Below are positions 12,699 through 44,940 of a stretch of 64,000 nt of DNA, one piece after another. The position numbers and the translations under genes were made by a program. Position 1 is the stretch's first letter. Each line of letters opens with the position of its first letter. The DNA lies in assembly GCF_054482525.1 (NCBI RefSeq), contig NZ_CM137006.1, one strand, 5' to 3'. The notes beneath the pieces were generated by a model. The model searched no databases. It saw only the letters and a list, made by a program, of their open reading frames with translations, and had not been told where the DNA came from.

Positions 12699-13493
12699 AT
12701 GGATCTGTTGTACCGGGTAAAAACGCTTTGGGCCGCGCTGCGCGGTAATCATTACACCTGGCCTGCTATCGATATCTCTCTTCCCGGCAATCGCCATTTT
12801 CATCTGATTGGCAGTATTCATATGGGCAGCCACGATATGGCTCCCCTGCCCACCCGTTTGCTCAAAAAGCTCAAAAACGCCGATGCGCTGATCGTCGAGG
12901 CGGATGTTTCCACCAGCGATACGCCTTTTGCTAATTTGCCTGCCTGCGAGGCGCTGGAAGAGCGCATTAGCGAGGAGCAACTCCAAAACCTGCAGCACAT
13001 TAGCCAGGAGATGGGCATTTCTACCTCACTCTTTTCTACCCAACCGCTGTGGCAAATCGCGATGGTTCTTCAGGCGACGCAGGCACAAAAACTGGGGCTG
13101 CGGGCAGAATACGGTATCGATTACCAGCTATTGCAGGCGGCGAAGCAACAACATAAACCCGTGATTGAACTGGAAGGGGCAGAAAACCAGATTGCCATGT
13201 TGCTCCAGCTCCCTGACAACGGACTGGCGCTGCTGGACGATACGCTGACCCACTGGCACACCAATGCACGGTTGCTGCAACAAATGATGAGCTGGTGGCT
13301 GAATGCGCCGCCGCAAAATAATGAAATAACGCTGCCTAATACGTTCAGTCAATCGCTGTACGATGTGCTGATGCATCAGCGAAATCTCGCCTGGCGGGAC
13401 AAATTATGCGCCATGCCGCCGGGGCGCTATGTGGTCGCAGTCGGTGCACTACACCTGTATGGAGAAGGGAATTTGCCGCAGATGTTGCGCTAA
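12699..13493 (+). CDS. ybaP: TraB/GumN family protein YbaP
   Basis: 264-aa ORF MDLLYRVKTLWAALRGNHYTWPAIDISLPGNRHFHLIGSIHMG..., recognised as E. coli YbaP. Confidence 0.9.
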   Translation: MDLLYRVKTLWAALRGNHYTWPAIDISLPGNRHFHLIGSIHMGSHDMAPLPTRLLKKLKNADALIVEADVSTSDTPFANLPACEALEERISEEQLQNLQHISQEMGISTSLFSTQPLWQIAMVLQATQAQKLGLRAEYGIDYQLLQAAKQQHKPVIELEGAENQIAMLLQLPDNGLALLDDTLTHWHTNARLLQQMMSWWLNAPPQNNEITLPNTFSQSLYDVLMHQRNLAWRDKLCAMPPGRYVVAVGALHLYGEGNLPQMLR

Positions 13494-13575
13494 AAAAATG
13501 GCCAATATCGCTATTGGCCCGTCAAAGAGGAATTTCATTTTTTTATTATTATGCCGTCACTTTAAGCGACGGTGT
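13494..13575 (-). ncRNA. chiX: ChiX (MicM/SroB) small regulatory RNA
   Basis: Reverse complement reads ACACCGTCGCTTAAAGTGACGGCATAATAATAAAAAAATGAAATTCCTCTTTGACGGGCCAATAGCGATATTGGCCATTTTTTT, matching my recollection of ChiX, including the terminator hairpin GGCCAATAGCGATATTGGCC plus U-tract; located in the ybaP-ybaK spacer as in K-12. Confidence 0.85.
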
Positions 13576-19220: not shown

Positions 19221-19350
19221 CGTGGTTGCCGGATGTAAAATATGAAAAATATGTAGGCATGATAAGACGCGCCAGCGTCGCATCAGGCATCGAGAGCCAA
19301 ATGCCAGATGCGGCGTGAACGCCTTATCTGGCCTACGAACCGACGATAAC
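19221..19350. repeat. REP/BIME repetitive extragenic palindromes between convergent ybaL and gsk
   Basis: Tandem imperfect palindromes of the GCCGGATG...CATCAGGC / GCCAGATGCGGCGTGAACGCCTTATCTGGCCTAC type. Confidence 0.75.
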
Positions 19351-22856: not shown

Positions 22857-23573
<717 letters not shown>

Positions 23574-23649
23574 TCAAGAAAGGCACCTGGGGCTGAAACG
23601 GTTAATGGCGAGATAATTTGCGGAAAGTTCAGATGATGAAAAGAAATAA

Positions 23650-24358
23650 ATATCCTCCGGCATAGCCGGAGGTTTTTCAAATGCGCCTATAAGGCTCTCT
23701 TACCAGCCGCGCCCTAACAGGCGCACACGATCTGACATTTGCATCCAACTTCGTTACTTACGGCCCGTAAACGGGCTGCCCGGATAGGGAATCGATAACT
23801 GCTCTCCCATTTTATCCTCTTCAAGCTGGTGCTTTATGTAATCCTGTATCTTCGCCGTGTTCTTACCCACCGTATCGACGTAGTACCCTCTGCACCAGAA
23901 CTCCCTGTTCCTGTATTTGAATTTCAAATCACCAAACTGCTCGTAAAGCATCAGACTGCTTTTCCCTTTCAGATATCCCATAAAGCCGGATACGCTCATT
24001 TTGGGCGGGATCTCCACAAGCATATGGATATGATCTGCACAGCATTCAGCTTCCAGAATCCGTACACTTTTCCACTCACACAGCTTTCTCAAAATACTGC
24101 CTATTGCTCTACGCTTCTCTCTGTAGAACACCTGTCTTCGGTATTTTGGCGCAAAAACTATGTGATATTTACAGTTCCATCGGGTGTGCGCTAAGCTCTT
24201 TTCGTTCCCCATTGGGACCCCCTTTTGATTTCTTGTTTGACACTTGCAGTTGCCAGACCGCAAGGTGTTTTAACAAATCAAAAGGGGTTTTAATAACTGG
24301 CTTAAAGCTGAAAGCTTTCCGGAACCCCCAGCCTAGCTGGGGGTTTTCTGTGCACAAA
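23650..24358 (-). mobile_element. IS200-family insertion sequence (IS200/IS605 family), approximate boundaries
   Basis: Contains the Y1 (HUH) transposase gene; hairpin AACCCCCAGCCTAGCTGGGGGTT (24322-24344) upstream of tnpA resembles the IS200 left-end stem-loop; the htpG-adk spacer is ~890 bp here versus ~180 bp as I recall in K-12, i.e. ~710 bp extra. Ends are estimated to +/-40 bp. Confidence 0.75.
23754..24212 (-). CDS. tnpA: IS200 transposase TnpA (Y1 HUH transposase)
   Basis: 152-aa product from internal Met: MGNEKSLAHTRWNCKYHIVFAPKYRRQVFYREKRRAIGSILRKLCEWKSVRILEAECCADHIHMLVEIPPKMS..., near-identical to IS200 TnpA as I recall it. Confidence 0.9.
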   Translation of the reverse strand: MGNEKSLAHTRWNCKYHIVFAPKYRRQVFYREKRRAIGSILRKLCEWKSVRILEAECCADHIHMLVEIPPKMSVSGFMGYLKGKSSLMLYEQFGDLKFKYRNREFWCRGYYVDTVGKNTAKIQDYIKHQLEEDKMGEQLSIPYPGSPFTGRK

Positions 24359-24393
24359 AATGCCGGATGACACGAGGGTCATCCGGCATTACA

Positions 24394-26268
24394 TCAGGAA
24401 ACCAACAGCTGGTTCATACGGCGAATAAACAGGTTCGGATCTTCCAGCGTACCGCGCTCTGCCAGCAGCGCCTGATCCAGCAGCAGTTCTACCCACTCGC
24501 TGAACTTCGCTTCATCTTCAGTATCTGCCGCACGTTTCACCAGTACGTGATCCGGGTTCAGTTCGAAGATGTATTTCACTTCTGGCACTTTCTGGCCCGC
24601 CGCAGCGAACAGTTTCGCCATCTGAGTGCTCATTTCGTCCGCGTCGGTAGAAACAATCGCTGGCGTATCGGTCAGACGGTGAGTCAGACGGACATCTTTC
24701 ACGCGCTCGCCGAGCAGGGCTTTCACACGGTCGATGAACGGAGTCAGGGCTTTCTCCGCTTCTTTCGCGCTCTCATCAACTTCGTCAGCCAGTTTTTCCA
24801 GCGACTCGTCAACTTTAGACACAGACTGGAACGGTTTACCGTCGAACTCAGTCAGATAGTTCATCATCCACTCATCGATGCGGTCGGAAAGCAGCAGAAC
24901 TTCGATGCCTTTCTTACGCAGCAGTTCCAGGTGCGGGCTGCTCTTCGCTGCCGCATAGCTGTCTGCAGTGATGTAGTAGATTTTCTCCTGCCCTTCTTTC
25001 ATGCGGGAAACGTAGTCTTCCAGAGACACGGTCTGCGCAGAAGAATCGGTATGAGTAGACGCAAAACGCAGCAGTTTGGCGATCGCTTCCTGGTTAGCGA
25101 AATCTTCCGCCGGACCTTCTTTCAGTACCAGGCCAAACTGTTGCCAGAAGGTCTGGTATTTTTCCGCGTCGTCTTTCGCCAGTTTTTCCAGCATTTGCAG
25201 CACACGCTTGGTCAGCGCATTGCGCAGGTTACGCGTTACCGTGCTGTCCTGGAGGATTTCACGGGAAACGTTCAGCGGCAGATCGCTGGAGTCAATCAGA
25301 CCACGCACGAAGCGCAGATAGTTCGGCATGAACTGTTCTGCGTCGTCCATGATGAACACACGCTGGACGTACAGTTTCAGGCCATGTTTATGATCGCGGT
25401 TCCACATATCCCACGGAGCCTGGGACGGAATGTACAGCAGGCTGGTGTACTCCTGCTTACCTTCAACGCGGTTGTGGCTCCAGGTCAGCGGATCGTTAAA
25501 GTCGTGGGCGATGTGTTTGTAGAACTCTTTGTACTCTTCATCGGTGATTTCCGACTTGTTACGAGTCCATAGCGCCTGCGCTTTGTTGATTTTTTCCCAG
25601 GAGATAACGGTTTCGCCGTCTTTCTCTTCGCGTTTTTCGATCTCTACCGGCAGCGCGATATGGTCGGAGTATTTGCTGATGATGGAACGCACGCGCCAGT
25701 CATCGAGGAACTCGTCTTCGCCTTCACGCAGATGCAGGGTGATTTCAGTACCACGATCTTCTTTGGTGATGTCGGCAACGGTGTATTCACCTTCACCAGC
25801 CGATTCCCAGAAAACACCGTTTTCTGGTTTTTCGCCTGCCGCGCGAGTACGCACGGTCACTTTGTCGGCCACTATAAACGCAGAGTAGAAACCAACACCA
25901 AACTGACCGATCAGCTGGCTGTCTTTCGCCTGGTCAGAACCCAGGGATTCGAGGAATGATTTGGTGCCGGATTTAGCGATAGTCCCCAGATGGTCTATCA
26001 CTTCGTCGCGGGTCATCCCCACGCCGTTATCGGAGATGGTCAGCGTGCGCTTGTCTTTATCGAAAGAGACACGAACGCGCAGTTCGCCATCACCTTCGTA
26101 CAGATCCGGGTTAGAGAGCGCACGGAAACGCAGCTTGTCCGCCGCATCGGAGGCGTTAGAGATAAGCTCACGCAGGAAGATTTCTTTATTGGAATAGAGA
26201 GAATGGATCATCAGGTGCAGAAGCTGCTTCACTTCTGACTGAAAACCACGAGTTTCTTGTCCTTTCAT
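24394..26268 (-). CDS. htpG: Chaperone Hsp90
   Basis: 624-aa ORF with GHKL ATPase N-terminal domain, recognised as HtpG. Confidence 0.97.
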
Positions 26269-27364: not shown

Positions 27365-29296
27365 TCAAATGGGGCGGATACTTTCTTCATCCAGCTCCGC
27401 ATCGAAGAACCGACGCAGAGTCTGAATATTATTATCCGCAATAATGGACTCGCGCGCCTGCGCAAGTTTTTCTTCGTATATCGCCTGACGCCATTCCAGC
27501 GGCGTACGCACCGCGGGATTATCATCTTCAACGATAGTCAGTTCAACCGTTGAACCTTTTAACGTGCTCAACGCTTCAGCCAGTTTTTGCTGTGCGCCGC
27601 GGTTGTTCAAATGCCGCTGAGAGGAGCGCAAATGCAGACATACTGCGTTGTCGCTCTCCTCTTTCCAGGCATTTAAGGCCACCTGTTCGACCAGTTTTGG
27701 TAGCGAAAGTTGGCTCACCTGTGCCGCCCACGGGTCGCGCTCAATGGCTTCTGCCGCCAGCTTCGCCGCCAGTTCCGGCGTTTTTTCATGTTCCAGCGCT
27801 TTTTTTAGCGCCTTCGGCGTGGCGACCACTTCTTTTTGCTGCATCACTGGAGTGGTGGCCTTCCAGCGATACGCTTCTTTTTTGGCTGGCGCTTTTTCCA
27901 GCGCCGATGGCACCGGACGCGCCTGAACGCGATCGGTGACCGAAGCCAGTCTTTCCAGCGCAGCGTTATTCACCGGCCGCGCGCGGGTAGCGGCTGCCGG
28001 TTCACTCTTTTTTGCTTTGGTTGCTCCCTGCACGCGCTGCAACTGCTGGCGCGCCGCCAGCACCTGGCTGGTGGTTTCCGGGAGCGGTACAGTCGGTGCC
28101 TGCTGCGGCGCTGATTGCGGTTGCGGCGGCACCTGGGTTGGCGTCATTACTGCCGTTGGCGCGACGGGCGCAAAGGACTGGCGTGGCACTTCTGGCTCAG
28201 GCAGCGGCATACGCGGATGGAACGCCAGCGCGCGCAACAGCGTCATCTCAACGCCCATACGGCGGTCTGGCGCATACGGTAATTCTTTGCGACCAATCAA
28301 CAGCGTCTGATAGTAAAGCTGAATATCCGTCGGCGGTATGGTGCGCGCCAGTTCACGCATCCGCAGCTCGATGGCGGCCATATCGTTGCCAAGTGCAGCA
28401 GGCGAAAGTTGTACCATCGCAATACGATGCAACAGACCGAGCATTTCCACCAGCAACGCTTCCCACTCGATACCACGGGCAGCGGCTTCATTAATCAGCG
28501 CCATTACGCGCTCGCCGTTGGCCTCGACCATCGCTTCAACCAGCGACAGCGCCTGATCGTCGTCAAGCGTACCCAGCATCGCACTGACCGCCTGGGTTGA
28601 AACCTGGCCGTCACCGCTGGCAATCGCCTGGTCGGTCAGACTTAAGGCATCTCGCAGGCTGCCTTCAGCGGCGCGCGCCAGTAATTGCAACGCCCGCGGC
28701 TCGTGAGCGATATGTTCTTCGTTGAGGATGTGCTCAAGCTGATGGCGAATTTGCTCGACATCCAGCGCCTTGAGATGAAATTGCAAACAGCGTGACAAAA
28801 TCGTCACCGGCAATTTCTGTGGATCGGTCGTCGCCAGCAGAAACTTAACGTGCTCCGGCGGCTCTTCAAGGGTTTTTAACAGTGCGTTAAAGCTGTGGCG
28901 CGACAGCATATGCACTTCGTCGATCAGATAAACTTTGAAACGACCACGCGCCGGAGCGTACTGGACGTTATCCAGCAGGTCGCGAGTGTCTTCAACTTTA
29001 GTGCGCGAGGCGGCGTCGATTTCAATCAGATCGACAAAGCGCCCCTGCTCGATTTCACGACAGTTATCGCACACGCCGCACGGCGTCGCGGTAATGCCGG
29101 TTTCGCAGTTTAGTCCCTTCGCCAGCAGTCGGGCGATAGAGGTTTTTCCGACGCCACGGGTGCCGGAAAAAAGATAAGCATGATGAATACGCCCTAACGA
29201 CAAGCCGTTCGCCAGTGCGGTCAGCACATGTTCCTGGCCGACGACGTCAGCAAAGGTTTGTGGGCGCCATTTTCGGGCTAAGACCTGATAACTCAT
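27365..29296 (-). CDS. dnaX: DNA polymerase III subunits tau and gamma
   Basis: 643-aa ORF with AAA+ clamp-loader motifs (GTRGVGKTS). Confidence 0.97.
   Translation of the reverse strand: MSYQVLARKWRPQTFADVVGQEHVLTALANGLSLGRIHHAYLFSGTRGVGKTSIARLLAKGLNCETGITATPCGVCDNCREIEQGRFVDLIEIDAASRTKVEDTRDLLDNVQYAPARGRFKVYLIDEVHMLSRHSFNALLKTLEEPPEHVKFLLATTDPQKLPVTILSRCLQFHLKALDVEQIRHQLEHILNEEHIAHEPRALQLLARAAEGSLRDALSLTDQAIASGDGQVSTQAVSAMLGTLDDDQALSLVEAMVEANGERVMALINEAAARGIEWEALLVEMLGLLHRIAMVQLSPAALGNDMAAIELRMRELARTIPPTDIQLYYQTLLIGRKELPYAPDRRMGVEMTLLRALAFHPRMPLPEPEVPRQSFAPVAPTAVMTPTQVPPQPQSAPQQAPTVPLPETTSQVLAARQQLQRVQGATKAKKSEPAAATRARPVNNAALERLASVTDRVQARPVPSALEKAPAKKEAYRWKATTPVMQQKEVVATPKALKKALEHEKTPELAAKLAAEAIERDPWAAQVSQLSLPKLVEQVALNAWKEESDNAVCLHLRSSQRHLNNRGAQQKLAEALSTLKGSTVELTIVEDDNPAVRTPLEWRQAIYEEKLAQARESIIADNNIQTLRRFFDAELDEESIRPI
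27971..28013 (-). other. dnaX: dnaX programmed -1 frameshift signal (A AAA AAG heptamer plus downstream stem-loop) yielding gamma
   Basis: Minus strand reads GCA AAA AAG AGT GA with A-AAA-AAG at codons 429-430, then stem-loop CCGGCAGCCGCTACCCGCGCGCGGCCGG; -1 frame gives Lys-Lys-Glu-stop. Confidence 0.9.
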
Positions 29297-44826: not shown

Positions 44827-44940
44827 GGGTGGGGGCCCTGCCAGCTACATCCCGGCACACGCGTCATCTGCCTTGGCTGCTTCCTTCCGGACCTGACCTG
44901 GTAAACAGAGTAGCGTTGCGGGAGAACCAACAGAGCCCCC
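44827..44940 (-). ncRNA. ffs: 4.5S RNA (signal recognition particle RNA)
   Basis: Minus strand reads GGGGGCTCTGTTGGTTCTCCCGCAACGCTACTCTGTTTACCAGGTCAGGTCCGGAAGGAAGCAGCCAAGGCAGATGACGCGTGTGCCGGGATGTAGCTGGCAGGGCCCCCACC, the E. coli 4.5S RNA; overlapping track ORFs are spurious. Confidence 0.95.

Follow-up and report, generated by a model that had tools for sequence, protein, structure and literature searches.

The extra DNA found between htpG and adk in the window, by which we mean the whole 64-kb stretch of DNA that was analysed, was identified by sequence comparison as a complete copy of IS200C, an insertion sequence already known in the IS200 group of the IS200/IS605 family that carries tnpA only. 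With a probability of about 0.85, this copy moved as single-stranded DNA into the lagging-strand template behind the htpG terminator, and adk was probably left unaffected. Comparison with further insertion sites revealed a general rule, according to which the left ends of IS200-group elements abut a GC-rich host hairpin followed by a T tract that ends in TT. We consider this apparent homing to terminators to be of greater interest than the htpG-adk copy itself.

The IS200C copy between htpG and adk

Relative to K-12 the window is reverse-complemented, and its htpG-adk spacer measures 892 nt against 180 nt in K-12, that is, 712 bp more. The initial annotation had placed an IS200-family element of ~710 bp at 23650-24358, between the htpG stop codon and the region upstream of adk and co-oriented with both genes. 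The element was indeed present, with all three genes on the minus strand, and its limits could be refined to those given in Table 1; the distance to the adk start codon, put earlier at ~150 bp, was measured as 143 nt. Comparison with K-12, which had been suggested as a check, revealed a K-12 spacer without the insert, the empty site reading GGCATTTTT^CTTTTCATC and, in wider context, ...CATCCGGCATTTTT^CTTTTCATCATC....

The ends of IS200C were placed by comparing 12 distinct E. coli sites, both htpG junctions included, together with tandem copies from Y. pestis. Junctions were read by direct string comparison; a global MAFFT alignment against K-12 put the large gap in the wrong place. The termini were thus defined as GTGCACAG on the left and GGATATTTATT, i.e. 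GGAGGATATTTATT, on the right, with the tail ATATTTATT and an ambiguity of 1-3 T at the junctions.

Table 1. Positions of the element, its parts, the neighbouring genes and the structured RNAs in the window
Feature	Position	Strand	Basis or remark
IS200C element, complete, 711 bp	23645-24355	-	K-12 empty-site comparison; identical copies elsewhere; RefSeq annotation in PCN033
tnpA, Y1 (HUH) transposase, 152 aa, intact	23754-24212	-	ORF list; Pfam; motifs
Left-end perfect hairpin, AACCCCCAGC-TAG-GCTGGGGGTT	24323-24345	-	Rfam STnc490 positions 1-23; fold -18.7 kcal/mol
tnpA 5'UTR stem-loop, Shine-Dalgarno region included	24219-24287	-	Fold -37.2 kcal/mol, z = -5.3
Right-end hairpin, CCTCCGGC-TAT-GCCGGAGG	23654-23672	-	Terminator scan; fold -15.9 kcal/mol
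htpG	24394-26268	-	Stop codon 24394-24396
Native htpG intrinsic terminator hairpin, host sequence	24359-24390	-	Also in the IS-free spacer of K-12
T tract of the htpG terminator, target site	24356-24360	-	IS left end attached at the tract's 3' end
adk upstream region, uninterrupted	23502-23644	-	K-12 alignment; only two SNPs differ
adk	22857-23501	-	ATG at 23501
sroB	13492-13575		Rfam
naRNA4	19256-19333		Rfam
dnaX frameshift element	27968-28032		Rfam
ffs (SRP RNA)	44836-44932		Rfam
sraA	62572-62667		Rfam

All 711 bp of the element recur with 100% identity at glcA, fabF and other sites. The name IS200C was taken, as an indirect indication, from the NCBI PGAP/RefSeq label of the identical protein: the transposase TnpA is the same as RefSeq WP_000526135.1, 'IS200/IS605-like element IS200C family transposase', and this exact protein was seen on many contigs. 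The presence of IS200C between htpG and adk was already known, as RefSeq annotates the element at the same site. All of the traits of the IS200 group that could be tested were found in the element. More specifically, terminal inverted repeats are lacking, GTGCACAG... and ...ATATTTATT being non-complementary as read from the sequence, and a subterminal hairpin is located at each end. The only annotated gene inside the element is tnpA, with no tnpB, and the other open reading frames of at least 40 aa overlap tnpA on one strand or the other.

The intact 152-aa Y1 transposase of the initial annotation was borne out by the RefSeq identity and by a match to the Pfam family PF01797 (Y1_Tnp; 4.4e-38) which covered the whole model (2-121/121); residue 61 marks an H-I-H (HUH) motif and residue 109 the tyrosine motif GYY. 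The terminator-like hairpin of the left end, which had been proposed at 24322-24344, was found with a shift of 1 nt. In Salmonella IS200, the left-end hairpin is a bidirectional terminator and the presumed TnpA-binding hairpin (PMC4513863, PMC5435999), at which ~85% of impinging transcripts are terminated (PMC5435999), and the 5'UTR stem-loop is a translational repressor of tnpA (PMC4513863). Both structures are spanned in the window by a full-length match to Rfam RF01405 (STnc490), located at 24222-24345 on the tnpA strand, with 146 bits where the gathering score is 56. According to Ellis et al. 2015 (PMC4513863), STnc490/art200 is antisense to the tnpA 5'UTR; the match on the tnpA-sense strand therefore marks the region of the small RNA and not its strand. 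At the other end of the element, the right-end hairpin is followed by ATATTTATT (23645-23653), and the structure is terminator-like on both strands.

The htpG terminator, a 13-bp stem (-22.1 kcal/mol, z = -5.4) with a run of five T's behind it, stands intact upstream of the IS. Since the 143 nt ahead of adk are K-12 sequence apart from the two SNPs, adk retains its own upstream region. A promoter scan of positions 23300-24600 returned no consensus sigma-70 site, neither an adk promoter nor an outward-facing promoter of the IS, at a threshold above the likely adk promoter TTGAGG-N17-TATCGT (8/12), so that sites of such strength were missed. As far as can be judged from these sequence features, the IS copy probably leaves adk expression unaffected, and adk would be at most slightly better insulated, via the additional hairpin that each end of the IS contributes.

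Matches to IS200C were found in 3,100 of the 5,426 complete E. coli genomes and none in the other 2,326; copies near full length occurred in 2,063 of the 5,426, at up to 35 places per genome. The htpG-adk insertion is rare, being carried by six of these 5,426 genomes, with the empty arrangement in 5,416. Three of the carriers, PCN033, SCU-102 and 19KM1776, make up one lineage, to which the window is 100% identical over a 1.1-kb region, and the other lineage consists of B20105 and two assemblies of strain 405. Over the 711 bp, the IS of this second lineage is 100% identical to that of the window, while the flanks differ at ~10 of 400 positions (~2.5%). The junction reads GGCATTTTT|GTGCAC in the window and GGCATTTTTCTT|GTGCAC in B20105/405, the latter lying 3 nt further along the T-rich tail. 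This combination of an identical IS, diverged flanks and displaced junctions shows that the T-tail of the htpG terminator was hit twice independently, the six carriers representing these two events.

Without the IS, the B20105 flanks give exactly the K-12 sequence GGCATTTTTCTTTTCAT, with neither duplication nor deletion, and this cleaner event thus shows that no target duplication was made. In the window lineage six T's run across the junction (24356-24361), against five in every IS-free genome found. The genome collection held no IS-free close relative of this lineage, the best being 98.8% identical with a 1-nt gap. The extra T may stem from a 712-bp variant of the IS, from slippage or from the gain of 1 nt at insertion; given this base and the want of a close IS-free relative, the insertion in the window lineage cannot be called perfectly clean. 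The rarity of the insertion and the different junctions of its two lineages agree with the earlier suggestion that it could serve as a lineage marker. As such it is handy for the PCN033/SCU-102/19KM1776 and B20105/strain 405 lineages, and it otherwise matters little.

Over 61 kb the window differs from PCN033 by eight SNPs and an indel in siiEA. This giant gene for a BapA-related adhesin begins within positions 1-7200 of the window (573231-580425 of PCN033), where a gene for a TolC-family outer-membrane protein is also located; it is marked as frameshifted in PCN033 by RefSeq, and the indel lies at about position 2515 of the window. The Rfam RNA elements sroB, naRNA4, the dnaX element, ffs and sraA are ordinary core-genome elements, and no tRNA genes were found in the 64-kb window.

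Host hairpins at the left ends of IS200-group elements

All 12 distinct E. coli sites of IS200C, the two htpG junctions being counted, follow a hairpin and a T tract, and a co-oriented gene ends 35-60 nt upstream in nine of the ten places with gene calls. The target hairpins differ from site to site and were found at glcA, fabF, guaA and other genes known only by their Pfam domains. Those of htpG and glcA share a REP-like core, GCCGGATGA...TCATCCGGC, as a result of which BLAST extended some IS matches ~35 nt past the IS.

For the comparison across taxa, the 23-nt left-end hairpin was used as a query against one genome per species, and 120 loci were obtained from E. coli-like genomes, Yersinia (IS1541), Vibrio, Brenneria, Dickeya, Edwardsiella, Mailhella and others. 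To be scored, a host hairpin had to have a perfect stem (7 bp or longer, with four or more G:C pairs) whose end lay 0-10 nt from the IS. Such a hairpin stood ahead of the IS in 105 of 130 distinct left-end flanks (81%); by the same definition the figure was 3.2% for windows drawn at random and 4.8% when these were T-rich and ended in TT. The spacing between the stem and the IS had its mode at 4-6 nt. TT closes 115 of the 130 flanks, the last four bases being mostly TTTT, TATT, TGTT or TCTT, and the right end of the IS itself closes with TATT, which is related to these target tetranucleotides. IS200 is at times found inserted inside genes (hisD984 in Salmonella), so the preference for terminators is not absolute.

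GC skew taken in the orientation of the IS was positive at 80 of 93 loci (p = 6e-13) and amounted to +0.022 over 63 kb of the window. A positive skew in this orientation places the top strand of the IS on the lagging-strand template, and insertion is, as a rule of the family, biased to that template (PMC5027513).

At two junctions in Y. pestis NCTC5923 (L082 and L129) a right end is followed directly by a left end, which indicates tandem copies, and the right-end hairpin stands where the host terminator otherwise would. Head-to-tail tandems of IS1541 with a spacing of 710 bp were observed in the same strain (L083 2661-3393; L085 12605-13337), the right-end tail ATATTTATT(T) being fused to the left end GTGCCCAG. 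These junctions are compatible with the one expected in the circular transposition intermediate, to which they appear identical.

The exact 23-nt left-end hairpin was also encountered in MAGs of distant phyla (L017-L045, L061-L077), often at contig ends. These MAGs are labelled Oxalobacter, Bacillota, Mailhella, Peptococcaceae, Saccharibacteria, Elusimicrobiaceae and Desulfovibrio, and their left-end tips vary (GTGAAACGAA, GTTAAAAGAA, GTATGAAGAA and others). The presence of the hairpin in these bins reflects either very wide horizontal spread of a single conserved structure or binning artefacts.

Proposed insertion mechanism and rival explanations

We propose that IS200C transposed by 'peel and paste', whereby its left end would have been attached to the T tract behind the htpG hairpin, at the 3' end of that tract. 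In IS608 and ISDra2, TnpA acts on single-stranded DNA, where it binds the subterminal hairpins; the top strand is cut out as a circle in which the right end meets the left end, and the circle is reinserted 3' of a short target without duplication (PMC5027513, PMC7290912, PMC3333891). Members of the family have no inverted repeats, cause no duplication and insert 3' of a specific short sequence (PMC7290912, PMC3333891). A single-stranded host terminator, with its hairpin and a T-rich tail ending in TNTT, would resemble the right end of the IS. In the circular intermediate the left end is normally joined to the right end, so that a terminator of similar appearance may be preferred as a target, and the new copy would come to occupy a transcriptionally quiet and nearly neutral 'safe harbour'. 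That IS200-group transposases might recognise host terminators as structure-specific sites, because terminators mimic the right end, is a tentative proposal which we advance with some doubt.

The idea of a right-end mimic specifically predicts an A tract located 5' of the target hairpin, as a mimic of the guide (cf. GAAAAA before both IS hairpins). No enrichment of such tracts was seen, which speaks against this version of the idea, and the A tract was rejected as a requirement, at least two A:T pairs being present in 43% of cases against 40% at 97 unoccupied terminator-like sites (p = 0.76).

The association with hairpins could in part reflect the survival of neutral insertions and not the recognition of a target. 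Taken as the whole explanation, IS200 would hit T-rich sequence generally and only harmless insertions, such as those behind terminators, would survive. Near-neutrality is indeed expected of insertions behind terminators, the TNTT tetranucleotide is common, and the hairpins adjacent to the IS resemble ordinary terminators, both in loop size and in their content of A tracts. We nevertheless regard this explanation as unlikely, since it fits poorly with the tight spacing of the hairpins, whose stems are separated from the IS by 0-10 nt (mode 4-6), and with their presence in 81% of the IS flanks as opposed to 4.8% of random T-rich windows. It also fits poorly with two independent insertions 3 nt apart in a single terminator, with the existence of right-end-to-left-end tandem copies and with an IS1541 copy between pheL and pheA in Yersinia, where the IS may abut the attenuator hairpin and where attenuation may no longer regulate pheA (PMC3082878).

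The initial annotation had raised the possibility that the insertion insulates adk from heat-shock read-through out of htpG. Retention of the IS as an insulator or regulator of this kind would be in keeping with the ~85% termination at the left-end hairpin of Salmonella IS200 (PMC5435999), with a right-end hairpin and T-rich tail that look like a terminator on both strands, and with the shared orientation of the IS, htpG and adk. However, read-through was presumably limited already before the insertion, given the intact native terminator of htpG that precedes the IS, and the 143 nt leading up to adk are unaltered save for two SNPs. The insertion is moreover confined to six of 5,426 genomes, and selection specific to adk is not needed when essentially all IS200-group copies lie behind some terminator. 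The use of such sites almost everywhere suggests that the position reflects target choice and not selection for the regulation of adk. Insulation of adk by the IS is thus possible but would be redundant, nothing suggests that it explains the presence of the insertion, and we judge its retention for this purpose to be highly improbable. We further consider it extremely improbable that the IS is ancestral at htpG-adk and that most strains owe their K-12-type empty site to its precise excision. Precise excision is a property of the IS200/IS605 family (PMC5027513), yet the site is empty in 5,416 of 5,426 genomes, the junctions differ between the two occupied lineages, and the IS does not differ at any position from copies elsewhere, as against flanks that diverge by ~2.5% between the lineages.

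Insertion of single-stranded IS200C behind the htpG terminator is the reading that we retain. With regard to the wider pattern, a recent preprint reported, on statistical grounds, that IS200/IS605 elements have terminator-like sequences ahead of them, which were read as limiting transposase expression (10.1101/2025.07.22.666184). An explicit account of terminator homing by IS200/IS1541 as a form of target choice was not found in the literature that was searched, and an earlier description may exist in the classical IS200 and IS1541 papers. If true, terminator homing would be a dedicated 'safe-harbour' strategy that explains the low cost and silence of IS200, as well as the high copy number tolerated alongside its apparent dormancy. 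The landing places of new copies would become predictable, and annotators should then assign the hairpins flanking IS200-type elements to the host and not to the IS. It would also provide a simple structure-guided system of single-stranded DNA targeting, to be studied beside IS608 and TnpB.

Comparison with known systems

IS200 of Salmonella enterica and IS200C of E. coli are alike in their length of ~707-711 bp, their single tnpA gene and its 152-aa Y1 transposase, and they share the left-end hairpin terminator, the 5'UTR stem-loop that hides the Shine-Dalgarno sequence, STnc490/art200 and the lack of inverted repeats. No structural difference was found between them; only the position at htpG-adk is uncommon. 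IS1541 of Y. pestis and Y. pseudotuberculosis has the identical 23-nt left-end hairpin, the same right-end hairpin CCTCCGGCTATGCCGGAGG plus ATATTTATT, and the same placement behind a host hairpin and T tract. It differs in the left-end tip, which is GTGCCCAGAA as opposed to GTGCACAGAA in IS200C, in its much higher copy number and in the occurrence of tandems.

IS608 of Helicobacter pylori and ISDra2 resemble IS200C in their Y1 HUH transposase, subterminal hairpins and 'peel and paste' transposition, and likewise insert 3' of a short sequence without duplication and with a bias to the lagging-strand template (PMC5027513, PMC7290912). They differ in that a tetra- or pentanucleotide suffices as their target (TTAC and TTGAT, respectively), whereas the target of IS200C is a loose TNTT with a host hairpin nearly always ahead of it, and in that they also carry tnpB.

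Class C group II introns reportedly insert just after the stem-loops of intrinsic terminators, as is said to have been described by Robart, Seo and Zimmerly in 2007. They share with IS200C the 'safe harbour' behind genes, after terminators, but are retroelements with an RNA-based mechanism and without sequence or protein similarity to IS200.

Lastly, TnpA-REP/RAYT is a Y1 relative of the IS200 TnpA, and REP-targeting insertion sequences and REPtrons similarly have extragenic hairpins as the substrates or targets of their transposases (PMC3333891). A link to REP sequences is seen in the target hairpins of htpG and glcA, which carry the REP-like motif GCCGGATG. The REP systems differ from IS200C, whose targets are diverse terminator hairpins and not a single REP family, and which is a mobile insertion sequence and not a fixed REPtron.
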